64,000 nucleotides of DNA from a virus. Positions 1,222 through 40,376 of this stretch are shown in pieces (the stretch's first letter is position 1; the number at the start of each line of letters is the position of its first letter). The stretch is from the UHGV virus genome UHGV-0375936. One strand, given 5' to 3'. Both the position numbers and the translations under genes were made by a program. The notes beneath the pieces were generated by a model. The model made no database searches and was not told the DNA's origin. It saw nothing but the letters and a program-made list of their open reading frames with translations.

Positions 1222-1890
1222 CTATCTAAGAATATTTTTAGCGAAAAAAGGATCGACTATAAACTCCTTCACCTGTGAGTCATAACCCGAATGTATTTGA
1301 TCGCTACTGAGCAAATACCCGTCTAAATCGTGTGGAAGAATCCAAGAATCCCCCTGTTTAAAAATACCATAATCTGTTGTTCCAGAGGAAAAAACGATTT
1401 CCTCTGGAGAGGGATAGATGTGGCGTAAGGCAAGATCAGACGGCTTTAGCACGATTAATCGAACGGGATGTTGACTGACTGCCTCTTTAATAAACTGTTC
1501 ACGATTAAACCAAATTATTTTTTCGGGGTAAGTTTCGAATTCAGCCCATGTCCGCGTGATAACTAATTTGGAAATCTTTCTCAATTCTTCAGAATGCTCT
1601 GCGTAGCCGATACACTCCTTGCGTACTTCATGATTTTCTACCGATGCTGTGAATTTTTGGAATAGGTGTTGTTGGAAAAAGCCGTTCTCCGGGATATCAC
1701 AACCCGCGTTGTATAGTGCAACGATCTCCCACAACAACGAAAGAGAAAACACAAATGCTAACTTTTCCACAACTTCCCAATCTTCGGAGTAAGGGGCTTT
1801 AAAGCCCCAATACTGCCGTGCGTTATACATAAAGTGAGTTTGTAAAAACCGAGGGGCTTTTGACAAGACCTCACTATAAACGATCAGCAT
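1222..1890 (-). CDS. hypothetical protein
   Basis: 222-aa ORF, 7-nt overlap with upstream gene (translational coupling). Confidence 0.6.
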   Translation of the reverse strand: MLIVYSEVLSKAPRFLQTHFMYNARQYWGFKAPYSEDWEVVEKLAFVFSLSLLWEIVALYNAGCDIPENGFFQQHLFQKFTASVENHEVRKECIGYAEHSEELRKISKLVITRTWAEFETYPEKIIWFNREQFIKEAVSQHPVRLIVLKPSDLALRHIYPSPEEIVFSSGTTDYGIFKQGDSWILPHDLDGYLLSSDQIHSGYDSQVKEFIVDPFFAKNILR

Positions 1891-3404
1891 TCAAGCTCCT
1901 TATCCGTCAATATTCGTTTGTTTGAATAATAGCCGCACCACAACCCATGATATTTTTCCCCGATATAAACCAACGCGTACTCGATATACTGCCGTTCTGG
2001 ACGCCGTACCGCCACGTAGAATCGTCCTTCTGGTTCTTTCATACGGTTGATTTCCGTACGCGTCGGTATGTCGATACCTCGAGTAAGGATGGTTTTAACC
2101 TTGTTTTTGCTACCTGGGATATGGATGGTTACGTCAAAACCTTTATCTACGTTACGATAAAAGTCTTTCTTCGGCTTACCTTTCTCATCGTAAAGCAGGT
2201 CAGTAATGTCGTTCATTACGACTGAGTTTTTCCCCTCCATGGCATCGCGTAACCAACCTGCAAGCTCATCACGAATCGTAATGCAGCGATAAGACAATAA
2301 CGCGGGACGAAGAATTCGTGTAATCGAAAGATCTTCAAACATCCACAGGTTTTTGTCTTCGCTAAAATGCATCCGTTCGATAGGAATACCGTTAGCTGCG
2401 GCTTCTGCGAACTTCTTACGTTTTACGAATAAGTTAAATACAACGGCGATGGGATCAAATTGACGTAAACGGGGCACCCCTTCCCACGCTTTCGCAGAGT
2501 GGGTATTTACCAACTCGTATACGTTATCCCACGGTTCTTTGGTAAACATTACGCAGAATTGTGCGTCTGGAATGTACTTACCAACGAAGACGATATCGTC
2601 CTTCTGTTTTGCATGGTTCCCACCGAACATGTAATAAAGTTTATTACCGTTAACCGTAACCGTGGGATGCGGTTCGTTCACCATCGGGTAACAGAACTTC
2701 GTAACACAGATATCAGGAAAGGCAGACAAATTGACACCCTCGCCAACAACTTCTGGTTGCTGTTCTTCCTCAGGCATCTCGTCTTTTGACCAATACGGTG
2801 TATAGTCTAACCCATCACCTCGAGCCGAAATACTTGAACCTTTCCGTGCTAACTCGTCGGCACGTTCGTTTCCATAACGTCCTGAATGCCCTTTAATTTT
2901 AAGGACACGAACACCTTTCCCTTCTTTCTTTAACCGCTGTTTAACCTCCCACATCCGTTGGATTAATTCCAAGTTCGCAATAGGTGTACCGTCTGCACGA
3001 CGCCAACCGCGTGCAGCCCAACCATCAATCCAATCGTTATACGTGTTGACAACGTAAGAGGCATCGATATAGATAACATAGTTTTTGGCAACGAAAGGTG
3101 CGTGTTCGAAGACGGTCAGGAAAGCCACGAGTTCTGCAACGTCAGAGTGTGACATTTTTGGTACAGGCACAACGCCGTCAATAAACTCCACAGTTTCTGG
3201 TAAAGGTGGAAGTTTTTCATCCTTGTTTATCTGGCGGTATCCTGACGACGTAATCCCCTCTGGAATAGAGGGATGGCGGTAAACCCGACCATCCTCAATC
3301 GCTTCACGATTAAATAAGTATCCATGAATCCCCGCTCCTGTACCGAGCGGGGAGGTCAAATGGCTACCATCCGTGTAAATTACTGCAACATCAACGTTCT
3401 TCAT
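1884..3404 (-). CDS. RNase H-domain protein with about 300-aa C-terminal extension
   Basis: N-terminus VAVIYTDGS ... KIKGHSGRYGNERADELARKG resembles RNase HI active-site and C-terminal motifs; remainder unassigned. Confidence 0.65.
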   Translation of the reverse strand: MKNVDVAVIYTDGSHLTSPLGTGAGIHGYLFNREAIEDGRVYRHPSIPEGITSSGYRQINKDEKLPPLPETVEFIDGVVPVPKMSHSDVAELVAFLTVFEHAPFVAKNYVIYIDASYVVNTYNDWIDGWAARGWRRADGTPIANLELIQRMWEVKQRLKKEGKGVRVLKIKGHSGRYGNERADELARKGSSISARGDGLDYTPYWSKDEMPEEEQQPEVVGEGVNLSAFPDICVTKFCYPMVNEPHPTVTVNGNKLYYMFGGNHAKQKDDIVFVGKYIPDAQFCVMFTKEPWDNVYELVNTHSAKAWEGVPRLRQFDPIAVVFNLFVKRKKFAEAAANGIPIERMHFSEDKNLWMFEDLSITRILRPALLSYRCITIRDELAGWLRDAMEGKNSVVMNDITDLLYDEKGKPKKDFYRNVDKGFDVTIHIPGSKNKVKTILTRGIDIPTRTEINRMKEPEGRFYVAVRRPERQYIEYALVYIGEKYHGLWCGYYSNKRILTDKELEC

Positions 3405-3406
3405 TC

Positions 3407-4141
3407 TTAATCCCTGGTTAATTGATCACGAATCTGTGGCGCAACATACTCGCCTGTTTTCAGTTCTTCGTGACAGGCTTTGGCGCGTTCAAACCCGTAT
3501 TGGCGTGTGACCAAAGCGAGGTGGTAAATACGTGCCGTGGTGTAGGCTTCTTTTGCTGCATCCCACATTGCGTGGTGCTCAAAAGCGGGCTTACCGCGTG
3601 TCCAGTAAATTTGCTCTACGGTTAAGTCAGGCTCGAAACCAAATGCAAAGGCTAAACGTTCTGCAGTACGATCGCTATCCAGTGCACTAAATTTACGGAA
3701 CTTCCCTGGCGGAATATCACATTGTGCGAACGCGTTCATGAAAATCGGTGCATCAAAGTCAGGACCACGCATGGTAATAACAAATTCATGTTTTGCGGTA
3801 ATCTCCCCGAGCCATTTTTGCATCGCCCACAGTGCGTCCGGCAATGCTGTCGTCCCACCCCATGCTTCCGCATAGGCTTCACGAGACGGTGCGTATTCGG
3901 GTTCGCCTTTACCTTCCCACCAACCAACAGTTTGTGGGTCTTCGTGGAAAATGGCTTTTGCTTTAGGATCGTTAGGATCAATACGGATGTATGAGGAACC
4001 GACCATTTTCAATGTAGGGACGTCAAAGGCCACTAAACCTGCACTTAACAGATAAGCATCGGGACGTAATGATTTGGTTTCAGCATCAGCGCCAATAACC
4101 AGCGTCGGTGTGTACGGGGTGACAATTTTTGGGTAGGTCAT
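3407..4141 (-). CDS. putative DEDDh-type 3'-5' exonuclease
   Basis: Candidate Exo I (GADAET), Exo II (GPDFDAPIF) and Exo III (HHAMWDAAKEAY) motifs; AGGAGAA RBS. Confidence 0.5.
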   Translation of the reverse strand: MTYPKIVTPYTPTLVIGADAETKSLRPDAYLLSAGLVAFDVPTLKMVGSSYIRIDPNDPKAKAIFHEDPQTVGWWEGKGEPEYAPSREAYAEAWGGTTALPDALWAMQKWLGEITAKHEFVITMRGPDFDAPIFMNAFAQCDIPPGKFRKFSALDSDRTAERLAFAFGFEPDLTVEQIYWTRGKPAFEHHAMWDAAKEAYTTARIYHLALVTRQYGFERAKACHEELKTGEYVAPQIRDQLTRD

Positions 4142-11939: not shown

Positions 11940-12383
11940 TTAGAATGTTTTGCTAAAATCGACCCACTCACGATCGTGTGAGTAAACCGCTTGATAGCCG
12001 CGTCGGATGAAATACTCTTTTGCTTCTTTACATTTCGCATACATGCCAGTAACAATCTCGCCGAAAACTTCATCAGCTGCAATTGCTTTGAAAATCTCTT
12101 TCATTACACCCCGTTGACGATAGTCTGGGAGCACGTATACCGAACGTATCTTAAGTGAACCGTTACGATTCCGATAACTACAGTATCCTACCGCGACATC
12201 ATCCTGATACACCAGAACTATGCAGTTACCTTCGATCAGCTGTCGCGCATTTAACTTCGGCACCGACATTTTGATTTTCAGTAACGTGGCCTGGTGGTCT
12301 AAGTAACGGTAGTGTAGTTTGAGTAAATCGGCAGCTTGTCGCTCGCCAACTTTAGAAGATGCGTTCAACAAATAAATTTCCAT
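11940..12383 (-). CDS. GNAT-family acetyltransferase-like protein
   Basis: Translation matches the minus strand only; YRQRGVMKEIF resembles the GNAT acetyl-CoA-binding motif; ATG at 12381-12383. Confidence 0.5.
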   Translation of the reverse strand: MEIYLLNASSKVGERQAADLLKLHYRYLDHQATLLKIKMSVPKLNARQLIEGNCIVLVYQDDVAVGYCSYRNRNGSLKIRSVYVLPDYRQRGVMKEIFKAIAADEVFGEIVTGMYAKCKEAKEYFIRRGYQAVYSHDREWVDFSKTF

Positions 12384-12414
12384 TTGCAAACCTTAGAGAC
12401 GCAAAAAAGTAAAA

Positions 12415-12543
12415 TTAAAACCAACGCGCGATGACGAAAGCCGCAGCGGCTAATATGGCTGTGGTGATTATCAATCCACCCCATGAAAGTTCCGCGTCGT
12501 ATAGTGCGGATATCGCTACATTCGTAGCGTTTATCGTGGTCAT
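12415..12543 (-). CDS. small hydrophobic peptide (42 aa)
   Basis: ATG with AGGAG RBS 6 nt upstream; MTTINATNVAISALYDAELSWGGLIITTAILAAAAFVIARWF; below ORF-track cutoff. Confidence 0.35.
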   Translation of the reverse strand: MTTINATNVAISALYDAELSWGGLIITTAILAAAAFVIARWF

Positions 12544-12600
12544 TTTCTGCTCCTGTCAATACCCTCACACCGGAGGGTATCTTCTGGACTATTTGGGTGG

Positions 12601-12699
12601 TTAATCTTCGAACGCCCAACGGTGACGTTTAATCAGCCAGTTTAAACCTTTACCAATTAACCACAACGAGCCAAGTGTTAACAGAACCCCTACAACCAT
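12601..12699 (-). CDS. small hydrophobic peptide (32 aa)
   Basis: ATG with AGGAGAGGG RBS; MVVGVLLTLGSLWLIGKGLNWLIKRHRWAFED. Confidence 0.35.
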   Translation of the reverse strand: MVVGVLLTLGSLWLIGKGLNWLIKRHRWAFED

Positions 12700-12709
12700 A
12701 TTCCCTCTC

Positions 12710-12895
12710 CTAATTCCGCCATTCGCATTCGCGTTGACGCCAAATTGAACCCCACGATAGTTTAATCAGATAAGATGAAACTACCCATAAAATCATCACC
12801 ACACAAAACATGACATAAAGAACCGCTAGAATGGACATGAAGCCAAACCCTGCCGCATCCACAATACGACGGAACCAATCAGTTTGCATAAACAA
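12710..12895 (-). CDS. small membrane protein
   Basis: 61-aa ORF with long hydrophobic core; overlaps the stop of the ATPase gene. Confidence 0.4.
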   Translation of the reverse strand: MFMQTDWFRRIVDAAGFGFMSILAVLYVMFCVVMILWVVSSYLIKLSWGSIWRQRECEWRN

Positions 12896-15383
12896 TTTTT
12901 ACTCCTTCGTTATACACCGCAGGCAATGTCACCCCTTCCGGTTCGATGACACAGTACGATGCTTCATTAAGTTTAGAATGAACCTCGGCTTCGTGGGAGA
13001 CTACCAACAGTTGGGAAAATTCTCCCGAGTTTGCTAACGTTTTAATAAAACCGACCAGGTTGTTACGGTGCTCCTCATCCATGCCTTCCGAAGGCTCATC
13101 CAAAAGCAACGGAAACTGATGCAACTTCAGCGCTTTGTACGCAGTCAGCCTGAACATCAGATTAAATATCGCACGCTGCGCCTTAGACCCTTTACGCACG
13201 TCAGGAACAGGCTCAGGATGCGTTTTTAGCTGGACAGGAAAAGTATAATCCAAATCGCCGTCAGTGAGGTCACAAGGCATAACGCGCATGGGGTACGTCC
13301 AGACCTGTTCGATATAACGCGTCATTAACTCTGTGATTCTAACGATAGCGTTGTAAAAATACTTTCTAAGTACACCCTTTTCTGGCGAGAAGGCTTGAAT
13401 CATCAGTTTGTTATTGAACTGCTGGGCTTGTAAGTCAGCAAGTTCGCGTTCCAAACTGTTGAGCTGATTCAATTCATTTTCCATCTGACGATAACGTTCG
13501 CGTGCGGTTGTAAAAGCATCCAGCTTCCCTTCTCGAGCACGTAAGAGTTCCTCGACGACCGTATTTGTCAACGTAACCTTAACATCACTCTCTAACCGTT
13601 CGAATAACGCACTGAAATCATCTACAGCACGTTTAACATTCACCAGATAGGTAAGTGTCGTGTTAGCCAGTTCGTGCTCTCTACGACGCATTGAGAGCAT
13701 CTCTGTGGCTTTACCTAATCGTGACTGTTGAAAAGCAATTTTCTGTTGTAAAGCACCATCGACGTTACCAACGGCCGCTACGGCATCCTGCCATTCTTTT
13801 TCCGCCTTCACTAACCGTTGTCGGGTTTCATGGTACTCAATAGCAGAGTACAACTCACTGTCAAACGCTGCGCATAGACTACCGAACTGTTCACGTGATT
13901 CTGTGAAAACGTTACGTTCTTGCAAACGCTTAAAGAACATGCTCAATACCGGGTCCTTTGAATACGTCAGCACAATCTCACGAACCTGCCGCATATAAGT
14001 TACATCAGATTCTAACTCAACACGATCGCGTAATAGGGCCTCTAACTGCGTTTGCAGTTCCGTGCGCTGCTGCTGTTGTCCACGAATCGAAGACTCAAGT
14101 TCAGGTAAAGAACGTGTAACACCAGGCCGAAACTTAAACCGGCACTGCGGACAATCCACTTCCGCTGTTTCTAAGTAGTGATTACGTTCGTGATTTAAAT
14201 TCTGTAAAACGTTCTCCACTCGCTGGAGTCTATCCCGCAACCCTGCGGTTTTTTGATCCATCACCAGAAGCCGTTCTTCCAAAACATTGAGTTTTTCAGT
14301 TGAATGAATTGCGTCCAGTGTTGTTCCTAACCGTTGCCCCCAAACACGCGCATCGGTAGCCGCACGAAGTTGGTCTAAATTGACGTTGTCGTTAAATAGA
14401 CCCGGAAAGAGATGCTCGGTGTCCCATTTGGTAAGTAACTCACGTAAACGCGCCAATGTATTCTTGAGACCTTCGTGATTCCGCATCAGGTAGTCTTGTC
14501 GTGTTGACTCATCCATCAATAACGACAAGTCTTTATTCAACATCGATACCTCTGTTTCAGTAGACACGACAGCTTCGCGGGCCGTCGCTTCGTTTTGTCG
14601 CGCGACCAGTATCTGTTCATCGGTAGGCAGGCCACCACGATGTTGTAATATTGCGTCGATGGTTGGGCCCAAGCTGTTTAATAACGCTTGGATTGTTTCG
14701 ATGGTGACGGCACGATTTAATCCTGGCAACTGTTCGATTTCTCGGTTCAATTCACGTAAATCCGATTCCAAACCTTTTAATCTCGTCGCTAACTGCTGCC
14801 GTTCTTCCTCGTTCTCAATAACACGCGTCCGTAATTCGGCGATCTTGCGGCTGGTGATTTCAATACCCCCATTTAAGGCAGTAAGGTTTTTACGTAAACG
14901 TTGATAAAACCCTAACGCGTAAGTGAGGTCAGAGGTACTTAAACGGTAAAACCATTTGCGGCGTAATTCGGTTCCCGCATCGGTTAACAACACCTCACCA
15001 TTTAATAGTTCTTTAATCTCTTTCGTAATACCCGTGATTTCTTCAACACGGGAGTTGTAGACTTTCGCATTACCTTGCTCGACGATCTTTGTCCCCGTGG
15101 TCAGGTTCTCAATATCGCAAACCAAAGAGTTGCCTTTACGGGCAACTTTGAATCGATAGCGTTGATCGCCAACTAAACAGTAGTTCGTGTAAGAACCGCC
15201 GTCCCTGAATTCAGTTTTAGCTGGTGCTAAGGGTAAGAACACAGACAGTAGACTGGTTTTCCCGCAGCCGTTCCCACCCAGGATAATTGTTGTCGGAGAC
15301 TGGATAGTGAAATCGAAGGTTTCAATTTCATGTAACCCCATCCCCGTAAAACCTTTGAGTATAATGCGTTCAACTTTTAGCAT
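12879..15383 (-). CDS. SbcC/Rad50/SMC-like ABC-type ATPase with long coiled coil
   Basis: Walker A GGNGCGKTSLL; coiled-coil middle; C-terminal LLLDEPSEGMD...LLVVSHE (Walker B/D-loop/H-loop); start probably ATG 15383 after GGAGG. Confidence 0.7.
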   Translation of the reverse strand: MLKVERIILKGFTGMGLHEIETFDFTIQSPTTIILGGNGCGKTSLLSVFLPLAPAKTEFRDGGSYTNYCLVGDQRYRFKVARKGNSLVCDIENLTTGTKIVEQGNAKVYNSRVEEITGITKEIKELLNGEVLLTDAGTELRRKWFYRLSTSDLTYALGFYQRLRKNLTALNGGIEITSRKIAELRTRVIENEEERQQLATRLKGLESDLRELNREIEQLPGLNRAVTIETIQALLNSLGPTIDAILQHRGGLPTDEQILVARQNEATAREAVVSTETEVSMLNKDLSLLMDESTRQDYLMRNHEGLKNTLARLRELLTKWDTEHLFPGLFNDNVNLDQLRAATDARVWGQRLGTTLDAIHSTEKLNVLEERLLVMDQKTAGLRDRLQRVENVLQNLNHERNHYLETAEVDCPQCRFKFRPGVTRSLPELESSIRGQQQQRTELQTQLEALLRDRVELESDVTYMRQVREIVLTYSKDPVLSMFFKRLQERNVFTESREQFGSLCAAFDSELYSAIEYHETRQRLVKAEKEWQDAVAAVGNVDGALQQKIAFQQSRLGKATEMLSMRRREHELANTTLTYLVNVKRAVDDFSALFERLESDVKVTLTNTVVEELLRAREGKLDAFTTARERYRQMENELNQLNSLERELADLQAQQFNNKLMIQAFSPEKGVLRKYFYNAIVRITELMTRYIEQVWTYPMRVMPCDLTDGDLDYTFPVQLKTHPEPVPDVRKGSKAQRAIFNLMFRLTAYKALKLHQFPLLLDEPSEGMDEEHRNNLVGFIKTLANSGEFSQLLVVSHEAEVHSKLNEASYCVIEPEGVTLPAVYNEGVKIVYAN

Positions 15384-15461
15384 ACCCACCTCCATAAAGA
15401 CGGAGTGTGGTGTAAAAAGAAAAAAATAAAGAAAGGGAGAACCCGAAGGTTCTCCCTAACG

Positions 15462-16070
15462 TTATTTGGTATACAGCTGATAACCCATTGAAGCCCAATA
15501 ATCAATGTTCTTCGCGTTTTCTACCCAAACCTGTCCCGCCTTTGTGGCTAAGACTTCCATTGTCAATGTACAGATCAGATTTGTTACCTGGATACAATTT
15601 CCAGGTGTAACATCATCCAGATAAACCGGATATAAAAACGGCGATTTAATGGATTGGTACGGGTAAGAATAGTGGCTACCGACTTTCCACCCTTCTTCTA
15701 CAGGGCAGAGATTATAAGTGCGTGTTTCAGGAACTGCGTTTTCAGAGATCCAGTTAACAACATCGGCTTTAATTCGATCGTGGTCGATATAGTAGAACAC
15801 AACACGCTGTGGGATACTTGTGGTACCAGCCGGGTCTAAAGCCTCCAACGCCTTAAAAGGCGACGTTAACAATGTTGTACTGTTCTCAAGCGCGTAAACC
15901 AACTTTTCGTAAGCAGTCGGTGTTTTGCGTTTAAAATATTCCCGTAAGCGAGGGTAAGCCAGGAAGCCCTCTACTTCTTCTTCCATTAAGTCAATGAATA
16001 AAGGCGTATGCGAAAACCGCTCTGCATTTTGCATCGCTTCAAGAAAACGAACTAATGTAATTTCGTTCAT
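15462..16070 (-). CDS. hypothetical protein
   Basis: 202-aa ORF. Confidence 0.55.
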   Translation of the reverse strand: MNEITLVRFLEAMQNAERFSHTPLFIDLMEEEVEGFLAYPRLREYFKRKTPTAYEKLVYALENSTTLLTSPFKALEALDPAGTTSIPQRVVFYYIDHDRIKADVVNWISENAVPETRTYNLCPVEEGWKVGSHYSYPYQSIKSPFLYPVYLDDVTPGNCIQVTNLICTLTMEVLATKAGQVWVENAKNIDYWASMGYQLYTK

Positions 16071-16087
16071 CTGGTCTTTCCTTTTAG

Positions 16088-16118
16088 ATCAAAAAAAGAA
16101 GCCCCGAGTAAACGGGGC
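16088..16118 (-). terminator. Rho-independent terminator
   Basis: GCCCCG-AGTAAA-CGGGGC hairpin with adjacent A-run on plus strand. Confidence 0.5.
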
Positions 16119-16126
16119 CGGGCTAA

Positions 16127-16603
16127 TTACAGCCCTAAGTGCGTGAGTGATAAAATAGGTTGTGTTTCACCTTTAATCGTCGCGTAGGAACGATACATTT
16201 CTGCGTTACTTGAAAAAACTTCGTTAGCAACGATACATTCACCCGTCTCTAAAGAAAGGAGATAAATGTAGTCGCTCCATACGCTTTGTACCAATACCCA
16301 CTCAAGTGCGGTATCATTTTCGCGTGTTGTTCGCAGGTGATGAAAGTAAGGACGGATTGCATCAACCGCCGCATTAAAACGACGGTGATAGATTCGGGTT
16401 AAATCAAAGGTCCAGATTGTTTCCAGGTCGACTGGATGTAATGTGCGCACCGTTTCGATAATCGTCGACTGATCGTTAAGGCGCGAGGCTTCGGCGATAC
16501 GTAGCAGTTTCCAGGCTACCGTTAAGTTGTGGCGAATTTGTTCAGGTTTAGCCGACAGGTCATGATGAAATTGCGCAGCTTGGTAAACGTTAGATAATTG
16601 CAT
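16127..16603 (-). CDS. hypothetical protein
   Basis: 158-aa ORF; conserved initiation context CCTAAAGGAGTATTAAAATG. Confidence 0.55.
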   Translation of the reverse strand: MQLSNVYQAAQFHHDLSAKPEQIRHNLTVAWKLLRIAEASRLNDQSTIIETVRTLHPVDLETIWTFDLTRIYHRRFNAAVDAIRPYFHHLRTTRENDTALEWVLVQSVWSDYIYLLSLETGECIVANEVFSSNAEMYRSYATIKGETQPILSLTHLGL

Positions 16604-26537: not shown

Positions 26538-29500
26538 ATGGCTGTCGTCCTAGACCCACACTTCAAAAAACCGGGGAATAAAATAACCGGTGAAGCGGTC
26601 GCCGTCATTGGTACGAAATACCGAATGTTGGTACCTGCCCACGCCCCTTTTTTCACCACATCCCTGGTGGTCAAGAGCGGCGGCAAAACACTGACCTTAG
26701 GCGACGATTACATTATTACACACCCGTACGAGACCGGTATGTTGCGCACAGCCTATCTCATTCACGGGATGATTTGGATTGTTAATGACAAATACAAATC
26801 GAATTTTACGGTAGATTACCACGCCGTTGGTTGTGGTCAGGCTACCCAACAACAGATTACCGCAGAACGCGAACTCAATAAAGATAAATACCCGACTACG
26901 TGTCAGTGGGACACCGTCATCGGGGACGTTTACTTTCCGCCGGTCGATATCCAGTTCGATTGGGAGAATTGGAAAGGTGAACTGGAATTAATGCAGGCTA
27001 TTGCTGGATTAGGCGATTCGTTAGGGGAAGTCGTGAGTCGACTTAACCCCATCGCACGCAATACCCTGGATTTAGAATACCGTGCTAACAGCAAGGTTAT
27101 CACTTCCGAGCAGTATGCCGCATACGACAATAAAGGTGGGTTCACCTACAACACTACCCGTCATCGTTATAGCTTGAGTTATAAAACTGCAACCTTTAAC
27201 GACTACGCCCTGTCAGTGAAACATAGAATTCCTGCTATTCTGCCAGACATGACGAAATTGAATCCAAACGAACAGATCGATTGGATGCTCTGTTATGCTA
27301 ACGGCGGGGCAAGTATTCTACGGCTGCAGCTAAAACAGCGCAAAATCTCACTGGTCTTAACGGTCGCTATTGGTAGCGGTTCAACAAACTACGATTATAC
27401 GTTAATCAACGGTTTAACTGACGATGAGTTAAAAAACGATATCGATTTTAGTGTAACCCGTCAACCCGGAAACGGTGTTTACGTCATCGTAGTAAAAACA
27501 AATAAACAGACCATGGATTACACATTCAACGTCGATACGCCGCCTGATGAGTTCTCGGCAGGGTATTCGAAAACGGATGTTGCTAAATGGTTGAAGTCTA
27601 AAACGAACATTAACCTGAACTGGTATGCTGGACAAAAAGATTATGTTCAAATTCGTTCTTTACCCGGCGCACCAGAACCTGACGTCGACAACGATGTTTA
27701 CCAGTTAATAGTTAAATACCATCAATTAGTTGAGCAGCTGTATCGTAACGCGCCTGCACACGAACACGTTACACGTAAGGACAACCCGCACACCGATACG
27801 TGGGGCCCGATCCGTGCGTTACAGCTGAATGGTATTGCGTCGGATGCCGCGTTAGCTTACGGGAAAACGAAACAACAGTTAACGGATTATGTTAATGCTA
27901 AGTACCCAACACAAGCAACGTTAACCGCACAGAAAAAACTGCTTCGTGAATCGGCGAACAAGAACGTTAACGGCACGATTACCACACTTCCGGGTTTTAC
28001 TTCGTTCACGACGGAAGTTGATCCGGTTTCGATGTCGAAATACGTGAGTCCTAGTTTTAGCGAAAGCTACGTTAGTAATGGTCACAGGTATCACGGTGCG
28101 CTTCGTTACACAGGAACGAAAAGCGGTTTCAGTGCTAACTTTAATGCGGTGCCTGCCAACCTGCAAGATATTGACTTTATTGTTACCGGACGTAAAACAG
28201 CGTCTGGTAACGAAGCTGTCGGTGCAGTTGGTTTGCGTTTCTACGAAAACCCCGGTAGTAACTCCGGTAAGTTTGTAGAGATTAACGGACAAATCTGGGC
28301 TGGTACCCTTACTATCAGTCTGACATTGAACGGTTACGGGAGTCCGTTACCGTCGGTGCGTTATATTTCTCAAGCCCCTAATCCGGCAATACCGGATGGA
28401 GATTTTACGCTACGTTTTCAACTGAAGCGTACAGGGAACGTGTTTGACGTCGTTATTACCGTAAACGGTAAAACGTATAGCGCCCGGATTAACTTCAATA
28501 ACATGGACGCTGCGTTAGAAGCATTAGAGAATCAGCACCACTTTAAATCGCTGATCAATAATGTTGCCGATGGCGTCAAAATTAGTTCGCAAAACAAAGG
28601 TAACACGGTTACCATTAAGAAAGCACCGGATGTCGTTGACGGAACTCGTTTAGGTGCCCAGTTTGTCGTTGATCCGAAATCCATTAAGTTTATTGGCCAA
28701 GGTTCAACTGATGTTAACGTAGGAAATAACCCCGTAACGTTCCAAGCAGGTACTAACCAGCTTATGTTGTATCCTGACGATCGTGGGTTACAGTGGCGTG
28801 GTAAAAAACTCTTAGACCCTACCACCGTGGCCCCGTATCTGCCAGGTAATACCGCAGGTGGTACCGGTTTATTCTACGCAAGCTCGACAACAACAGTTAC
28901 GATCACTGGTAGCGGGATAAAAGCTTCGCCGTTCGTAGCGACCTTTATTCTCCCTACCGCGACCGATACAACGGCTCTGGCAGCTTGGCAGTTGACCGAT
29001 GAGTTCGGTACTGCTGAAAACCTTGCAGCAACGCCAGCACTGATTGAAAAACTGGATGCGGAGTTCACCGGTAAGTTAGTTGCAGTTAAATCGTACATTA
29101 ACGACATGCAGCTTACCAGCTCGGTTACTATCGATAAGATTACCTTCGGTTTAGGTAATGTTGCGAATACGCCCGATGTCAATTTACCGATTTCTACAGC
29201 ACAGCGTGCGGAGTTAGATAAATACTCGCCTAAGGTTCACCAACACCCGTTTACCGCTTTTGGTACCGGGAACGCAACCACAGCGAAACGCGGTCTGATT
29301 AAATTTGGTCTGGATGTGGATGATGCGACTTTAGCACTCGATGGGAGTGTGGTAATGGCGCAGACTTCCCAGATTGAAAAATTGGAGAGTGCTGTCGGCG
29401 GCGTTGACTCGGAGGCACGTCTTGATATCATACGTTTTGGTGAGTCTGGTAACGACTTAATAGACGTTACGGTCAAAGACAAAATTCTGGTCACGCTTCC

Positions 29501-30860
29501 AGCTTCAACGTATTTTATCGGTGGCGAAACGTACACCGTACCGTTGATGACGATTAACGTTAGTGAACGTTTTCCGAAATTGAATACAGAGATCTACGCG
29601 GGGATTTTTGTTGATATTGTTGATAACAAAGCGAAGTATATTATCCACGACAGCTACAGTCAGGCCGAAACGGATACCATGACGCGTGTGGGGTTGATCG
29701 GCGTCAACGACCTTTCTGAGGTGTTCGTTACAGAGATGCGTAATGTCACACGGTTGGGTGATTTCCGTGAACTGAAAGATCATAAAGCCGATGACAACGC
29801 ACACATTCAGCGCTCCGCATCACGTGCAGCGCTTGGGTTAGCTAACTTAACCGTAGGTGCGCCTTGCTGGGCTTCTGGACTCCAGGCAGTAGTACGCGGT
29901 GAAGCAGATTGGCGTTATGTTGCCGGTGGACAGTATAAAGCTTTAGACGGGGTGAAATACGACCAGCTCGCATCCAAGTGGATTTTTGACGCGAAAGGGG
30001 TAAGCGATAACCTACACGGGTTTATCCACAACATGTTCCCAGCTTTTAAGAACGCAGGAATGCGGGTAAGTTGGGAAACAGAAAGCAACGCAAAAACCGG
30101 CACGGTGTTAGAAACTGTTTTAGGTTGTTGGAAAAACACCGACGGCGAGTTTATGCGGTTGTCGTTACTTATCACTCGTGGTTATCGTTTAACTGACAGC
30201 AACGGTGAGTATTGTTACGCAGGGTTCGGTTTGAACTTCGGTAGCGGGAAATCGGTAGTGTTAGGTTTCACACCAACGAAGCGTGTTACGCCTGCACCGT
30301 GGAATACGTTACAACCTGACGTAACGTTTACCCACACCCGTGCTGCAAATAACGCATTAACGTTTAACGCAACACTGACCTTAGCGGGCACTACGTATAC
30401 CGTCGTGGTGTTTTTATCTGCGACAGATAAATACGTAAGCTGCACGGCAGCAGGGGGAGCTACGCAGAAAATCCCTCTAACTGACCGTTTAACAGGGTTC
30501 AACCTCGCACCTATCGTTAACGATCCGTATACCCCTATTTACTACGGTTTAGGGGGACTTTATGAGGATGAGGTTCGTGCCAACATCCGTTCTACGGCAG
30601 ACAGCGCAACCGCGAATAAAGTCTACGGTACGTTGTTAGACTATATTAGCAACTATTCCTCATTAAATCGTGTGCGCGTTATGGAATTGAGCGGTGTCAG
30701 TTCAGACCCCGAAACGCTTAATGCGTTAGTGGCAACTGAATTTAATAACAACCTGGCGGATTACGCCGCGTTACCGATACCTTCTTATCTTAACAAGGAG
30801 CGCGTAATGTCGTTTATCGACACCAACAATAAAGTGCAGGCGGTAATCATTCGCGATTAA
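26538..30860 (+). CDS. tail-fibre-like protein (paralog 1 of 4)
   Basis: 1440 aa; N-terminal PFF...G..L.LG.DY domain shared with next three genes; T4 gp34/gp12-like repeat (NATTAKRGLIKFG). Confidence 0.65.
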   Translation: MAVVLDPHFKKPGNKITGEAVAVIGTKYRMLVPAHAPFFTTSLVVKSGGKTLTLGDDYIITHPYETGMLRTAYLIHGMIWIVNDKYKSNFTVDYHAVGCGQATQQQITAERELNKDKYPTTCQWDTVIGDVYFPPVDIQFDWENWKGELELMQAIAGLGDSLGEVVSRLNPIARNTLDLEYRANSKVITSEQYAAYDNKGGFTYNTTRHRYSLSYKTATFNDYALSVKHRIPAILPDMTKLNPNEQIDWMLCYANGGASILRLQLKQRKISLVLTVAIGSGSTNYDYTLINGLTDDELKNDIDFSVTRQPGNGVYVIVVKTNKQTMDYTFNVDTPPDEFSAGYSKTDVAKWLKSKTNINLNWYAGQKDYVQIRSLPGAPEPDVDNDVYQLIVKYHQLVEQLYRNAPAHEHVTRKDNPHTDTWGPIRALQLNGIASDAALAYGKTKQQLTDYVNAKYPTQATLTAQKKLLRESANKNVNGTITTLPGFTSFTTEVDPVSMSKYVSPSFSESYVSNGHRYHGALRYTGTKSGFSANFNAVPANLQDIDFIVTGRKTASGNEAVGAVGLRFYENPGSNSGKFVEINGQIWAGTLTISLTLNGYGSPLPSVRYISQAPNPAIPDGDFTLRFQLKRTGNVFDVVITVNGKTYSARINFNNMDAALEALENQHHFKSLINNVADGVKISSQNKGNTVTIKKAPDVVDGTRLGAQFVVDPKSIKFIGQGSTDVNVGNNPVTFQAGTNQLMLYPDDRGLQWRGKKLLDPTTVAPYLPGNTAGGTGLFYASSTTTVTITGSGIKASPFVATFILPTATDTTALAAWQLTDEFGTAENLAATPALIEKLDAEFTGKLVAVKSYINDMQLTSSVTIDKITFGLGNVANTPDVNLPISTAQRAELDKYSPKVHQHPFTAFGTGNATTAKRGLIKFGLDVDDATLALDGSVVMAQTSQIEKLESAVGGVDSEARLDIIRFGESGNDLIDVTVKDKILVTLPASTYFIGGETYTVPLMTINVSERFPKLNTEIYAGIFVDIVDNKAKYIIHDSYSQAETDTMTRVGLIGVNDLSEVFVTEMRNVTRLGDFRELKDHKADDNAHIQRSASRAALGLANLTVGAPCWASGLQAVVRGEADWRYVAGGQYKALDGVKYDQLASKWIFDAKGVSDNLHGFIHNMFPAFKNAGMRVSWETESNAKTGTVLETVLGCWKNTDGEFMRLSLLITRGYRLTDSNGEYCYAGFGLNFGSGKSVVLGFTPTKRVTPAPWNTLQPDVTFTHTRAANNALTFNATLTLAGTTYTVVVFLSATDKYVSCTAAGGATQKIPLTDRLTGFNLAPIVNDPYTPIYYGLGGLYEDEVRANIRSTADSATANKVYGTLLDYISNYSSLNRVRVMELSGVSSDPETLNALVATEFNNNLADYAALPIPSYLNKERVMSFIDTNNKVQAVIIRD

Positions 30861-30873
30861 GGAGAATTTTTTG

Positions 30874-33800
30874 ATGAAAGCGTATCCTTACGATCCTCGG
30901 GGGACGAAAGCCGAGAATCACTTCTTAGAGGAGCGTATCATCGGGTCAGAGAACAACAACGATCGGGTGGTGATTTTAGACCACCGCCCGTTCTTTGAAG
31001 ATTTGGTCGTCAGACAACCAGGTTCAACCACCCCACTGAGTCGTGGGGTGGACTACGAACTGCAATATCAGCTGACGGAACTGGATGACTCGGTAGCAGC
31101 CAACGTGTATTGTGGGGTACACCTTATCAACCCATCCATCAAAGGCATCGTAACCTTTGAAGGACAAATGCTCGGCGGTACGTTCTACGACCCGTTTGTT
31201 GATATTCTCGATGAACTGGTGAAATATTTGAATAACCCTGTCAGTGCTGACTGGTTGTTATTAGACGGTAGACCATCGTTATATCCAGCGACGCCAGCAG
31301 CAACGTCCTGGGCGGATTTGCTGAACAAAAAATATTTAGCGTCGGCAGTTCACGATATTGAATTGAAAACCGACGACGCTAACCAGTTAATTAAAGACAA
31401 ATTAGCTGAAGTTAAAGCGTTAGTGACTGCGTTGGGTAAAGAAATCGAAGCATTTAACTACCCGGCACATATCGCGGAAACCAACCCACACAAAACCACA
31501 TCCGCGCAGATTAACGCGCATCCTGTTAACTTGAAAACACCCGACACCTTTATGGCGTACGGGTTAAAGTTGAAAGCGCTGACGGATGAGCTGAAAGCGT
31601 TTCGTTTACCCCAGTCAGTTATCGACACGTATATCTCTCACTGGATTTCTTCGGAAGTACGTGGCGTGTTTAACTGTACGGTGTCAGGAAACCGCGCACA
31701 GTTCCGTTCGAAAAACGGTGAGTCAGAAATCATTTTTGCCAACGATGGTTTTACGTTAAAATCCAACGGTTCTGTGGTATTAGCGGTAGGGCATCTGGAA
31801 GGTACGGGTGCAGGACGTTACATTAATTGGCGTGCCGGTAAAAACACATTACGCATCGAGTCAACAGGCGATGCTTTAGGGATGAACAAACTCACCCTGA
31901 ACGGTAACCCGTTACTGACTACCACGGCGTTGATGGAATACCAACAAGATCCAGATGCGGGTTCTGGTGGCGGTGGCGACCCTGATGACTCGAAGGTGTA
32001 CATTGAAGGCCGTAATGGGATTAGCTTTACCGGTAAAGGTTCTCGCGCCGACCCTATCGTGGGGACTATCGACCCAACAAAAGCGACAACCGCCGAAAAA
32101 GGCGTCGCTAAACTTAAAACAGGTAAAGGTACAGAAACGACTGGGGTTGCTGCAACTCCGGCTTCGTTAGCACCATACTCGACTGACCTATCGGGGTATG
32201 TGGCTAAAACGACCATGATTAACGGTAAGCCGATGAACGACGGCTCCAGGACAATCACGAAAGCTGATCTGGGGTTAGGGCAAGCGAATAACACCGCAGA
32301 CGTTGACAAACCGTTGTCTACCGAGTTAAATGCGGCGCTTAGCGGCTTAGCGGATGCAGGCCACCACCACGATTGGTCGGAACTCGGCATTTATAAAGCC
32401 TCGCAATCCGTTTACGGTATCGGTCGTTACGCAACTAACCAGAACGGTTTGGTTGAAAACCGTGCGGTAGTACCGAACATCTTAAAAGAACTTTCGGCGC
32501 GTTTAGATGTGGTTGCTGCGGCGATTGCAAACGCGAAAGAAGGATCGGTAACGGATTTCGCTGCGGTAAAAGGCGCAGAGTGGCGCTTTAATAGTCAGGG
32601 TACGGCAATCTCCGTTCAAGATTTGAAGTATTTCTATTTGCTGAACGGTACGAAAGCTGATAGCACCGTTACAGGTTCGATTGACCTGCAAACTACGCCG
32701 ATGTTTAACTGGTTCTCACCGAACAACCAAATTGAGACGACTTGGCCTACGGGGAAAGTGAGCGCTGGTAAGGGTATTAACTGGACAGGTATTGAAGAAC
32801 CACCACTAATGGGTTTCCAATCTGTTCCGGTAGGTAAAACTGCCTCACAGATGGGTGACCAGTCAGTTGTTACTGTGTTGGCCAAAACGCGGGTAAGGGC
32901 ACACCAGTCGAAGCTTTGGGTTTATGCCGCAGGGGGTGGTCCGGTTACAGTTTACATTAACGGTATCCAGGCAGCCACAGGCCAGTCTCCACTCGTTGCA
33001 GTGCATGAAACATCAGCAGACGTTGAAAACTACACCGTAGCGGTTAAAGCTGAGTGTAGCGACACAGCTAAATCCGCAGCGGTGCAATTCGAAATTTACG
33101 ACGGTGACTACCCCGTTTATTTCAGTGGCCCTGAAACGCGCGTAGAGCTTCTCCAAGAGTTTGTTACAACACACGTAGGGATTCGTCATTATCTGTACGT
33201 TAACATGCTCACAAGCTCTCTGTATTCGCGTACTGAGCCAATTCAGAGTGTTGCAGTTGATCCTGAGCGCGGTTATATCGGCTACGTTGATATTGTTGCC
33301 GGTGAGTCTTACGCGAATAAGAGCGTGAGTTTTGAAACCACGTTTGATTTCGGGAAAAGTGCCGAGGTTAGTGAACACATTGACACACGCAAAGCACACG
33401 GACTCAGCTCTGTAGACTGGACGTTAACGGATAACCCACGTTTCCCGTTATTAAATCGTGCGATTGCAGAGCCGAGAACGTGTATTTTTAGAAAAACGTT
33501 AACGGCCGGTACTGGTGACGTTTTTCATCTCGTGAGTCGTGGTCTTTATACTTACGCACATAACCAAAACGTGAAGTCCAGTCTTCAATACGTTGTGATA
33601 CCTGAAGGTGCTACACCGTATTGCTGGTTTACGCCGTTTAACCCGAAAGAAAACAACGCACCGACGTTCGAAGGTTCGTTTGTGTTCGACGTTGACGACG
33701 TCGGTGGAACACAAGCGCTCACGGCTGCACCGGATTTGGTGCTGTGTACGTCAACACAAGGTAGCAGCGTTAAACGTCGTTACGTACGTATTGACCTAAC

Positions 33801-35055
33801 TGCCAAAGCGTGTAAGCTGGGGATTGGTTCTCGTTCAGATTCTGCGGTTACGGATATCCCGTTAGTGATGGAGGAATCTGGGGAAACGGCGGTGGCGGCA
33901 ACGTTTAAGGATGTGTTGTTCAACGGCGAGGAAACCAACGCAGCGATACTCGACTTGATAGGCTGGGGTCCAAATAAAGACAAAATCTCTGCAAACCACG
34001 CGCCACGAGGTATGATTCGTTATCGTTACAACGTAAACACTCGGGTATTACGTTTAGCACTATCGTTCTCACAGTTCGGAACGACAACAGTTAAGCACCG
34101 CCAGTTGGAAATTGAATTTCCGTTTGATTTGGTGGATTACTTCACCGGTGACGGTGTAGGATTGTCGTTTAAAGAACTGTCTGCGAAATGCCGTGTAACG
34201 ATTAGCCACGCACTGATTGATCCGGTTACGACTAAAATCGATATTGATAAGTATCATTACCTACGCTCGTTATTTGAGTCGTATTTGGATGCATCTGTTG
34301 GTTATTTGGCTGATACCAAAGACGCCGACTTTAACCAGTCTGTGATTGACCCTGCGACTTATGAGATTAATCAGAAATACCGCGTTACCGAAAGCATTGC
34401 GCTGCCGACCGGTCAGGGAAGTGTTGCTGTTTCCCATGACGGTCAGTTACCTGCACAGTTCTTTGACCGTAAGCTGTCTCGCGGTGCTTTGATGGCCAAG
34501 AAAGGTGAACTTCATACTTCCTGGAACAATGAGTGGAGTACATCCAAAGCTGCCGCAAACCGGTATCGACATAAACTCATTCTGCGCTTTGCACAAGGTG
34601 CTGATAAACAACAGTACCGTGTTGCAAAAGTGACAGGAACGGTGAAGTGTAACTGGCCGGGCAAGGTGATTATCGGTGATGCTGGGAAGGACGCGTATGT
34701 ATCAGCTATCGATAGCGTGCCGTTTGCGCTTTCGACCAGCGCGGACACAGGTAAAGCAGTTACCCTTACGCCAAAGGATCTACGTGTAGGGCAGGACATT
34801 TATATTGTCTTAGAACCACCAGGCAATAATCCAGAAGGCTACGAGCTTAACTTTACCTGTTCGTTAGATGTCACTGACGAGAAAGGTGTCCGTCAAGACC
34901 AGCTCAATGCGCAGAGTTTCGAACTCCGTAGCGGCGAAAGTCAGTTCTTAATGGAGAAACGCAATCCGTACCACATCACGAGTAAAGCGTGGAAGTGGAT
35001 TCTGGCTGTACTGAAACGAGAACTTAACGGGAAGCAGTTAGGGGATCGTACTTAG
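30874..35055 (+). CDS. tail-fibre-like protein (paralog 2 of 4)
   Basis: 1394 aa from ATG after AAGGAGAA; shared N-terminal domain; repeat ATTAEKGVAKLKTGKGTETTGVAATPASL. Confidence 0.65.
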   Translation: MKAYPYDPRGTKAENHFLEERIIGSENNNDRVVILDHRPFFEDLVVRQPGSTTPLSRGVDYELQYQLTELDDSVAANVYCGVHLINPSIKGIVTFEGQMLGGTFYDPFVDILDELVKYLNNPVSADWLLLDGRPSLYPATPAATSWADLLNKKYLASAVHDIELKTDDANQLIKDKLAEVKALVTALGKEIEAFNYPAHIAETNPHKTTSAQINAHPVNLKTPDTFMAYGLKLKALTDELKAFRLPQSVIDTYISHWISSEVRGVFNCTVSGNRAQFRSKNGESEIIFANDGFTLKSNGSVVLAVGHLEGTGAGRYINWRAGKNTLRIESTGDALGMNKLTLNGNPLLTTTALMEYQQDPDAGSGGGGDPDDSKVYIEGRNGISFTGKGSRADPIVGTIDPTKATTAEKGVAKLKTGKGTETTGVAATPASLAPYSTDLSGYVAKTTMINGKPMNDGSRTITKADLGLGQANNTADVDKPLSTELNAALSGLADAGHHHDWSELGIYKASQSVYGIGRYATNQNGLVENRAVVPNILKELSARLDVVAAAIANAKEGSVTDFAAVKGAEWRFNSQGTAISVQDLKYFYLLNGTKADSTVTGSIDLQTTPMFNWFSPNNQIETTWPTGKVSAGKGINWTGIEEPPLMGFQSVPVGKTASQMGDQSVVTVLAKTRVRAHQSKLWVYAAGGGPVTVYINGIQAATGQSPLVAVHETSADVENYTVAVKAECSDTAKSAAVQFEIYDGDYPVYFSGPETRVELLQEFVTTHVGIRHYLYVNMLTSSLYSRTEPIQSVAVDPERGYIGYVDIVAGESYANKSVSFETTFDFGKSAEVSEHIDTRKAHGLSSVDWTLTDNPRFPLLNRAIAEPRTCIFRKTLTAGTGDVFHLVSRGLYTYAHNQNVKSSLQYVVIPEGATPYCWFTPFNPKENNAPTFEGSFVFDVDDVGGTQALTAAPDLVLCTSTQGSSVKRRYVRIDLTAKACKLGIGSRSDSAVTDIPLVMEESGETAVAATFKDVLFNGEETNAAILDLIGWGPNKDKISANHAPRGMIRYRYNVNTRVLRLALSFSQFGTTTVKHRQLEIEFPFDLVDYFTGDGVGLSFKELSAKCRVTISHALIDPVTTKIDIDKYHYLRSLFESYLDASVGYLADTKDADFNQSVIDPATYEINQKYRVTESIALPTGQGSVAVSHDGQLPAQFFDRKLSRGALMAKKGELHTSWNNEWSTSKAAANRYRHKLILRFAQGADKQQYRVAKVTGTVKCNWPGKVIIGDAGKDAYVSAIDSVPFALSTSADTGKAVTLTPKDLRVGQDIYIVLEPPGNNPEGYELNFTCSLDVTDEKGVRQDQLNAQSFELRSGESQFLMEKRNPYHITSKAWKWILAVLKRELNGKQLGDRT

Positions 35056-40336: not shown

Positions 40337-40376
40337 CGCCACGAGACAAGGACGTCTCGGATTAAGGAGAGTGGCC

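Follow-up and report, generated by a model that had tools for sequence, protein, structure and literature searches.

The apparently orphan Rad50-like ATPase of a phiKZ-like jumbo phage is very probably the SbcC half of a split-encoded SbcCD pair

The minus-strand gene at positions 12879-15383 of the window (the whole 64,000-nucleotide stretch of phage DNA analysed here) very probably specifies the SbcC/Rad50 part of a phage-encoded Mre11-Rad50-type (SbcCD) complex for processing DNA ends, and its product is orthologous to SPN3US gp186 and phiKZ gp165. The ORF runs without interruption over 12879..15395, counting 838 codons from its first ATG. Use of this upstream ATG at 15395 would lengthen the protein by 4 residues. 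The second ATG (15383, also the end coordinate given in an earlier sequence-only reading) has a GGAGGT ribosome-binding site 5 nt upstream; since the closest homologues are moreover 834-836 aa long, translation likely starts there and yields a protein of 834 aa. An exact-sequence look-up of the 838-aa translation returned no record; the 834-aa form has a 99% relative, P0001, encoded on a Logan contig. The gene and the motifs of its product are as follows.

12879..15383, minus strand: SbcC/Rad50-like ATPase gene, 834 aa, from the ORF and the choice of start
15255..15278, minus strand: Walker A (P-loop) GGNGCGKT, residues 36-43
14169..14933, minus strand: ascending coiled-coil arm, residues ~151-405, from DSSP on an AlphaFold2 model
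14142..14153, minus strand: zinc-hook motif CPQC at the coil apex, residues 411-414
13392..14108, minus strand: descending coiled-coil arm, residues ~426-664, from the AlphaFold2 model
13176..13190, minus strand: ABC signature motif in the divergent form GSKAQ, residues 732-736
13077..13112, minus strand: Walker B PLLLDEP (residues 758-764) followed by the D-loop SEGMD (765-769)
12990..13001, minus strand: H-loop (switch) VSHE, residues 795-798

The Walker A motif, long coil and C-terminal Walker B/D-loop/H-loop on which the sequence-only reading had based its call of an SbcC/Rad50-like ATPase are all present. Alignment of 24 homologues showed G36, N38, G39, G41 and K42 of Walker A to be invariant, as are G732, S733, A735 and Q736 of the signature, D762, E763, P764 and D769 of Walker B and the D-loop, and S796 and H797 of the H-loop. 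The protein thus has the bipartite ABC ATPase head of SbcC/Rad50, with a divergent signature: GSKAQ aligns with the signature S-x-G-Q of the Rad50 structure 5da9, whereas cellular SbcC/Rad50 proteins have the canonical S-G-G-Q/E type. A long, helix-rich product whose gene lies in a stretch rich in virion genes might also be a coiled-coil structural protein, tape-measure-like for example, in which the ATPase motifs are fortuitous. However, all five ABC motifs are invariant in the 24 homologues, the head has a Rad50 fold, and Table 4 of PMC5105663 does not mark SPN3US gp186 as part of the virion, although it does so for its structural neighbours. A structural role is very improbable and was rejected on account of the invariant ATPase motifs.

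Between the two halves of the head, the AlphaFold2 model (mean pLDDT 82.8) places two arms of ~250 residues each, predicting the long intramolecular antiparallel coiled coil expected of SbcC/Rad50. The helices of the ascending arm span residues 151-187, 192-217, 228-247, 255-318, 336-358 and 365-405, and those of the descending arm residues 426-474, 478-489, 497-537 and 545-664. The arms are joined by only a short non-helical turn of 20 residues (406-425), and no globular SMC hinge is seen in the model. In place of a hinge there is a CxxC motif at the coil midpoint, CPQC (411-414), a predicted zinc hook in which C411, P412 and C414 are invariant among the 24 homologues and which aligns with CPSC of phiKZ gp165. 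This motif had been overlooked in the sequence-only reading.

Sequence and fold comparisons placed the protein in the same family. It matches the PHROG 77 "SbcC-like subunit" with an E-value of 1.3e-91 over residues 3-837, its best NCBIfam match is Rad50 (NF002244, 1e-10), and its best PDB sequence matches are the Rad50 heads 5da9 and 3qkt. Foldseek returned as top PDB match the Rad50 chain of the C. thermophilum MRN complex (7zr1_C, E 2.4e-18, full-length alignment). The curated cut-offs were not reached, neither that of Pfam SMC_N (34.5 bits vs 40) nor that of NCBIfam Rad50 NF002244 (40.4 bits vs 847); these models were made for cellular proteins, from which SbcC, judged by its sequence, is too divergent. 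Precomputed Pfam annotation assigns PF02463 to most of the SbcC homologues returned. Smc5/6, condensin, MukB, Lamassu LmuB and JetC also gave fold matches with good E-values, and therefore the hook and the partner, rather than the fold, decide in favour of Rad50.

Among these proteins, LmuB raises the question of a defence or counter-defence ABC ATPase (LmuB, RloC-like or JetC-like) carried by the phage. The protein matches the PADLOC model PDLC03859 (E 2e-18, residues 2-803) and, by Foldseek, the Lamassu LmuACB structure 9hqx_B (E 2.5e-12). Lamassu reportedly derives from Rad50-type repair machinery (PMC12663957), so that such cross-matches are to be expected, and PHROG 77 gives a far better score than LmuB. 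Neither an LmuA effector nor LmuC nor an additional nuclease domain was seen in the protein or its neighbours; the upstream neighbour has no PADLOC match, and in the flanks no nuclease or defence domain is recognised by Pfam or NCBIfam, their PHROG matches being of unknown function. Furthermore, in lytic jumbo phages this is an essential core gene. A defence function is therefore very improbable. More generally, LmuB, SMC, MukB and JetC share with the window SbcC an SMC-like fold of head plus coiled coil; the latter differs in lacking a hinge and kleisin, LmuA or LmuC partners, and in having a zinc hook, co-occurrence with SbcD and the standing of an essential phage replication gene.

The nuclease partner is absent from the neighbourhood, as the sequence-only reading had stated. 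Its test for an SbcD gene nearby, or for phosphoesterase motifs in the flanking genes, gave a negative answer: at the thresholds used, Pfam Metallophos matched no ORF of 100 aa or more between 448 and 23352, nor either of two shorter ORFs in the flanks. In a tblastn search of the whole 64-kb window, SPN3US SbcD gave a best E of only 0.9, and an HMM of ten SbcD orthologues run against all 604 six-frame segments of the window reached 0.66 at best. Two IMG/VR genomes, both near-complete and with an SbcC that shares 99% identity with the window protein, do carry an intact SbcD orthologue, 87-131 kb from SbcC as measured from contig coordinates. One of them, IMGVR_UViG_3300029126_000001 (225 kb; DNA 97.4% identical to the window across the 4.5 kb compared), has SbcC at 53.7-56.2 kb and SbcD at 143.1-144.2 kb, ~87-90 kb apart; the other is IMGVR_UViG_3300045988_113438. 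Judging by these near-identical genomes, the window's own genome, of which the window covers 64 kb, probably encodes SbcD as well.

The SbcD orthologue matches PHROG 100 (1.2e-59) and has invariant metallophosphatase motifs (D22-x-H24, G57-D58, H101-D102, H180 and H212-D-H214), motif III reading GTPSHD and not GNHD/E. The family is very divergent: Pfam Metallophos scores below threshold on SPN3US gp27 (E 0.032), a profile of six orthologues found no meaningful match among PDB sequences, and an hhalign comparison of this profile with T4 gp47 had a probability of 0.8%, although the metallophosphatase motifs line up, an illustration and not a test. Thomas et al. (2016, PMC5105663) named SPN3US gp27 the SbcD subunit and described sbcC and sbcD of phiKZ-like phages as "drastically separated". 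Gp27 lies at 21 kb and gp186 at 169 kb in SPN3US; phiKZ likewise has SbcD (orf65) at 55 kb and SbcC (orf165) at 169 kb. In Asesino, too, SbcD is encoded at a great distance from SbcC. Such a split arrangement is already published for SPN3US and phiKZ (PMC5105663). In phiKZ-like genomes, genes with linked functions are generally scattered, and the separation mirrors this, not the loss of a partner.

These data also bear on the second option of the sequence-only reading, an SMC-like protein acting alone, without Mre11/SbcD, which might for instance organise or condense DNA inside the phage nucleus. The lack of an SbcD gene next to SbcC or anywhere inside the 64 kb would agree with it, as would the strong fold matches to Smc5/6, condensin and MukB and a coil that far exceeds the one in T4 gp46 in length (834 aa vs 560 aa for the proteins). 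Against it, the CxxC zinc hook is present and a globular hinge absent, no kleisin-like partner or neighbour was found, and both the best sequence match and the best fold match are to Rad50. Moreover, the two IMG/VR contigs with a near-identical SbcC also carry SbcD, and the phage collection holds 290 records matching the SbcC query and 290 matching the SbcD query, with near-identical genus counts. A stand-alone role is accordingly unlikely, and the other option offered at the outset, a nuclease partner encoded elsewhere, is the one borne out. Two genes ~9-11 kb off, encoding a Rv2179c-like exonuclease (3407-4141) and an RNase H protein (1884-3404), were rejected as surrogate nucleases, since the near-identical genomes contain a true SbcD orthologue and both are separately conserved genes, with counterparts in relatives (SPN3US gp206 "endodeoxyribonuclease" and phiKZ gp155 RNase H).

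The window phage is a jumbo phage, kin of Erwinia phages Asesino and phiEaH2 and Salmonella phage SPN3US. SbcC shows 71% identity with Asesino gp207 and 58% with SPN3US gp186 at a query coverage of 99-100%, and aligns end to end with phiKZ gp165 (22% identity, E 5e-62) with the hook conserved. The three proteins are of near-equal length (830-836 aa) and share the CPxC hook; the window protein differs from them only by sequence divergence. The flanking PHROGs and the gene order around SbcC match those of Asesino and SPN3US, including a small overlapping ORF for a transmembrane (TM) protein. A megablast search of deposited phages with positions 12000-16500 was negative, so that, judged by DNA, the phage has no closely related cultivated phage; the closest DNA belongs to uncultivated IMG/VR and Logan contigs (94.7-97.4% nucleotide identity). 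A tRNA scan of the 64-kb window found none. By these alignments, SbcC is the orthologue of SPN3US gp186 and phiKZ gp165 and a core gene of the phiKZ-like (Chimalliviridae) jumbo phages. The phiKZ-like phages with this core gene are mostly nucleus-forming. SPN3US gp186, named the SbcC subunit, is essential, amber mutants being lethal (Thomas et al. 2016, PMC5105663), and phiKZ orf165 proved necessary in an antisense screen and remained free of transposon insertions, which it did not tolerate (PMC12571901, PMC12676376). SbcCD is practically universal among jumbo phages (PMC7824862).

E. coli SbcCD and the archaeal and eukaryotic Mre11-Rad50 complexes likewise combine a bipartite ABC head with an antiparallel coiled coil and a CxxC zinc hook; they also have a metallophosphatase partner, as the window SbcC probably does. 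In phage T4, gp46 and gp47 are a phage-encoded Rad50-type ATPase and an Mre11-type nuclease, essential for recombination-dependent replication. The N-terminal head of gp46 aligns with that of the window SbcC (hhalign probability 79%, E 1.6e-5), a marginal similarity, and its coil is much shorter. T4 genes 46 and 47 are clustered, ~0.4 kb apart, unlike those of the window phage's group. In cells, sbcD and sbcC are likewise joined in an operon (PMC5105663), whereas in the group of the window phage the two lie ~90 kb apart.

Two elements adjoin the SbcC gene.

12710..12889, minus strand: 59-aa ORF with a single transmembrane helix (Kyte-Doolittle 19-residue maximum 2.8)
15434..15457, minus strand: terminator-like hairpin in the interval between the upstream ORF and SbcC, by consensus match only

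The hairpin, a putative terminator, has a 10-bp stem with 6 GC pairs, a TTCG loop and a T-rich tail. The 202-aa upstream ORF (15462-16070) was considered as an alternative nuclease or partner and discarded: it gave no Pfam, NCBIfam, PADLOC or PDB match, and hit only PHROG 9964, of unknown function. Downstream, the first 11 nt of the 59-aa ORF are also the last 11 nt of the SbcC gene, and the two are likely to be translationally coupled through this overlap. The small protein matches PHROG 16515 (9.4e-5) and corresponds in position to SPN3US gp187 and Asesino gp208. Members of the SPN3US/Asesino clade conserve the overlap; at this position phiKZ lacks an overlapping ORF on the same strand. Thomas et al. 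(PMC5105663) raised the small ORF next to SbcC as a possible membrane anchor, and the TM protein may be functionally linked to SbcC. Conceivably, the long-coil SbcC is tethered by this protein to the membrane, the early infection vesicle or the nuclear shell, an idea to which we give little credence; the one observation in its favour is the conserved gene overlap, and none speaks against it. If it were true, a tethered SbcC would do more than classical SbcCD end processing, for example anchor or organise genome ends, and tethering could also account for the uncoupling of sbcC from sbcD.

For the SbcC subunit of a split-encoded SbcCD, a mode of action can be proposed by analogy with Rad50/SbcC and T4 gp46/gp47. 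Two SbcC heads would engage upon ATP binding, SbcD would dock at the base of the coiled coil, and the complex would clamp DNA ends or hairpins and then resect or cleave them. Such end processing would feed recombination-dependent replication and the processing of concatemers of the 220-250 kb phage genome, a role that would explain why SbcC is essential. We found no biochemically reconstituted SbcC-SbcD complex of a phiKZ-like phage in the literature; that the two proteins form a complex and act as a nuclease in these phages is what we infer from the analogy. For SPN3US, the family, its essentiality and the separation from sbcD have been in print since 2016, and work on phiKZ confirmed them again in 2025. 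Thus, what looks like an orphan Rad50 in the window is very probably half of a split-encoded SbcCD pair, a core feature of the phiKZ-like jumbo phages.

The SbcC gene lies on the minus strand within a single ORF of 838 codons (window 12879..15395). Since a ribosome-binding-site-like GGAGGT sits 5 nt ahead of the second ATG (15383) and the closest database homologues of the protein are 834-836 aa long, the gene was taken as 12879-15383, encoding 834 aa. These are the coordinates given in a sequence-only reading, which described the product as an SbcC/Rad50-like ATPase; the feature is real and was correctly described. The ATPase motifs were all located in the protein:

Residues 36-43, Walker A, GGNGCGKT
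Residues 732-736, ABC signature, GSKAQ
Residues 758-764, Walker B, PLLLDEP
Residues 765-769, D-loop, SEGMD
Residues 795-798, H-loop, VSHE

The invariance of these motifs excludes a structural coiled-coil protein. In an AlphaFold2 model (alignment input, 24 homologues; mean pLDDT 82.8), residues 1-150 are predicted to form a beta-rich N-terminal head half, followed by long helices (~151-405), a short non-helical turn, further helices (426-664) and the C-terminal head half, in agreement with the long coiled coil claimed in the sequence-only reading. In the orthologue gp186 of phage SPN3US, more than 600 residues separate the head halves (Thomas et al. 2016, PMC5105663). Separately, a nearly invariant glutamate, E125 ('IKELL', about 15009-15011), falls opposite the ABC Q-loop glutamine of T4 gp46 ('FKQIV') in a weak hhalign alignment; this may reflect either a misalignment or a genuine Q-loop variant.

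The strongest indicator of family is a CPQC motif halfway along the helical region (residues 411-414); the earlier description did not include it. C411, P412 and C414 do not vary among 24 homologues with identities down to 37%, and phiKZ gp165, only 22% identical overall, has CPSC aligned with it. The motif is the predicted Rad50/SbcC zinc hook. The whole protein is covered by PHROG 77 (SbcC-like; 1.3e-91), the top NCBIfam match is Rad50 (NF002244, 1e-10), and single-sequence and profile searches of the PDB returned as top matches the Rad50 heads of Chaetomium, Pyrococcus and Methanocaldococcus. An hhalign comparison of the family profile with T4 gp46 gave a probability of 79% over the N-terminal 190 columns. 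Curated cellular models were not passed (Pfam SMC_N, 34.5 bits vs 40; NCBIfam Rad50, far under cut-off), and the protein is therefore a divergent family member; what places it in Rad50/SbcC is its architecture and hook, together with the phage-specific family model and the partner.

A Foldseek search of the PDB with the model placed first Rad50 of the C. thermophilum Mre11-Rad50-Nbs1 complex (7zr1_C, E 2.4e-18), followed by Smc5/6, condensin, MukB, Lamassu LmuB and JetC. The LmuB matches, together with a PADLOC match (2e-18), would fit an LmuB-type defence ATPase; however, they are accounted for by common descent from Rad50, the LmuA and LmuC neighbours are missing, and the phage requires the gene. 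Amber mutants of SPN3US showed gene 186 to be essential, its product being the SbcC subunit and homologue of phiKZ ORF165, and gp27 the SbcD subunit; the same study noted that the two genes lie far apart in phiKZ-like phages (Thomas et al. 2016, PMC5105663). phiKZ orf165 was required in an antisense-oligomer screen (PMC12571901) and tolerated zero transposon insertions (PMC12676376). SbcCD is reported to be nearly universal among jumbo phages (PMC7824862).

No deposited phage matched window 12000-16500 at the DNA level (megablast). At the protein level, tblastn with SbcC retrieved 290 phage records, all jumbo phages of the phiKZ/SPN3US kind, including Erwinia phages Asesino, Stratton and phiEaH2, whose proteins are 70-71% identical to it across 99% of its length, and Salmonella phage SPN3US and relatives (58%). 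The records annotate the homologues as 'putative SMC domain-containing protein' or 'SbcC-like subunit of palindrome specific endonuclease'. The genes surrounding SbcC follow the order of Asesino gp206-gp218 and SPN3US gp185-gp198, and the flanking ORFs fall in PHROGs mostly of unknown function (including 9964, 8115, 5248, 8968, 16515 and 3810, an acetyltransferase). Uncultivated relatives are far closer: one Logan contig and two IMG/VR genomes encode a 99% identical SbcC, their DNA being 94.7-97.4% identical to the window (97.4% over the 4.5 kb compared for IMGVR_UViG_3300029126_000001).

The reported lack of an adjacent SbcD, the Mre11-type nuclease partner, was borne out. Pfam revealed no metallophosphatase in window 448-23352, either among the ORFs that reach 100 aa or in two shorter flanking ones; tblastn with SPN3US SbcD (gp27) against the whole 64 kb found no match (best E 0.9); and an HMM of ten SbcD orthologues, which recovers its own members at 1e-240, detected nothing in 604 six-frame window segments (best E 0.66). 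An IMG/VR scan with both proteins found them on the same contigs, with SbcD far from the 99% identical SbcC:

IMGVR_UViG_3300029126_000001 (225,000 bp), SbcC at 53.7-56.2 kb, SbcD at 143.1-144.2 kb
IMGVR_UViG_3300045988_113438 (220,786 bp), SbcC at 150.9-153.4 kb, SbcD at 19.1-20.3 kb

Likewise, SPN3US carries gp27, annotated 'nuclease SbcCD D subunit', at 21.0-22.2 kb and gp186 at 168.9-171.4 kb, and phiKZ carries orf65 (SbcD) at about 55 kb and orf165 at 169.1-171.6 kb. By collinearity, the SbcD gene would be expected some 74 kb outside the window, past position 1, which would account for its absence from it. The first contig encodes an intact 382-aa orthologue, which matches PHROG 100 ('SbcD-like') at 1.2e-59; its best NCBIfam matches, sbcd and Mre11, are all sub-threshold. 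Invariant residues are D22-x-H24, G57-D58, H101-D102, H180 and H212-D-H214, with motif III reading GTPSHD rather than GNHD/E. This atypical motif (G-T-P-S-H-D-H) is invariant in 6 SbcD sequences of SPN3US-like phages. This SbcD family has diverged to the point that neither Pfam Metallophos nor profile searches of the PDB reach significance.

In the phage collection, SbcC and SbcD queries each retrieved 290 records, with near-identical genus counts. This matching distribution, the zinc hook, and the absence of a globular SMC hinge in the model and of a kleisin-like neighbour disfavour the other possibility raised earlier, a stand-alone SMC-like role; the finding of SbcD on the same contigs as SbcC in close relatives supports the distant-partner alternative.

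A strong terminator-like hairpin (15434-15457, minus strand; 10-bp stem, TTCG loop, T-rich tail to about 15420) separates SbcC, whose start is 50 nt away, from the upstream ORF (15462-16070), whose stop codon it directly follows. Its position between the two genes suggests that a separate transcription unit begins at SbcC. Upstream of SbcC there is no sigma-70-like promoter, as expected for a phage using its own RNA polymerases. At the other end, a 59-aa ORF (12710-12889, minus strand) overlaps with its start the final 11 nt of SbcC; it contains one strongly hydrophobic helix (Kyte-Doolittle 2.8) and matches PHROG 16515. Equivalent overlapping genes are SPN3US gp187, described as a small transmembrane protein encoded just downstream of gene 186 (Thomas et al. 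2016, PMC5105663), and Asesino gp208; in phiKZ, orf165 is not directly followed by such a gene on the same strand.

Other genes in the window include:

1884-3404, minus, RNase H-domain protein, 506 aa
3407-4141, minus, Rv2179c-like 3'-5' exonuclease, 244 aa
10718-11278, minus, Macro-domain (Appr-1-p processing) protein, auxiliary enzyme near SbcC
11940-12389, minus, GNAT acetyltransferase, auxiliary enzyme near SbcC
26538-30860, 30871-35055, 35150-40336 and 40269-41576, plus, four consecutive large ORFs (1440, 1394, 1728 and 435 aa)
44623-45945, plus, radical-SAM protein (PHROG 1802, 2e-114), farther from SbcC

Among the ORFs scanned, the first two, which adjoin, are the only nuclease-type genes detected up to about 11 kb from SbcC; neither is a metallophosphatase. 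The RNase H protein corresponds to phiKZ gp155, a strong scorer in a published antisense screen; the exonuclease is called 'endodeoxyribonuclease' in SPN3US and Asesino. The four large ORFs have a common N-terminal region, cross-match PHROGs 2163, 7449, 7557 and 8078 ('virion structural protein'), and look like the paralogous baseplate/fibre family of SPN3US (gp168 and relatives). A 395-aa ORF (52987-54174, minus) has no PHROG match at E 1e-5 in a genome otherwise well covered by PHROGs.

Established for SbcC are its domain architecture, its hook and a co-occurring nuclease gene. By analogy with Rad50/SbcC and T4 gp46/gp47, we infer that SbcC and SbcD form a complex with nuclease activity in phiKZ-like phages. 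The heads of an SbcC dimer would engage, driven by ATP, with SbcD bound at the coil base; DNA ends or hairpins would be clamped and then processed nucleolytically, and this end processing may feed recombination-dependent replication and concatemer maturation. The separation of the SbcC and SbcD genes is already known for the phiKZ/SPN3US-type phage family.
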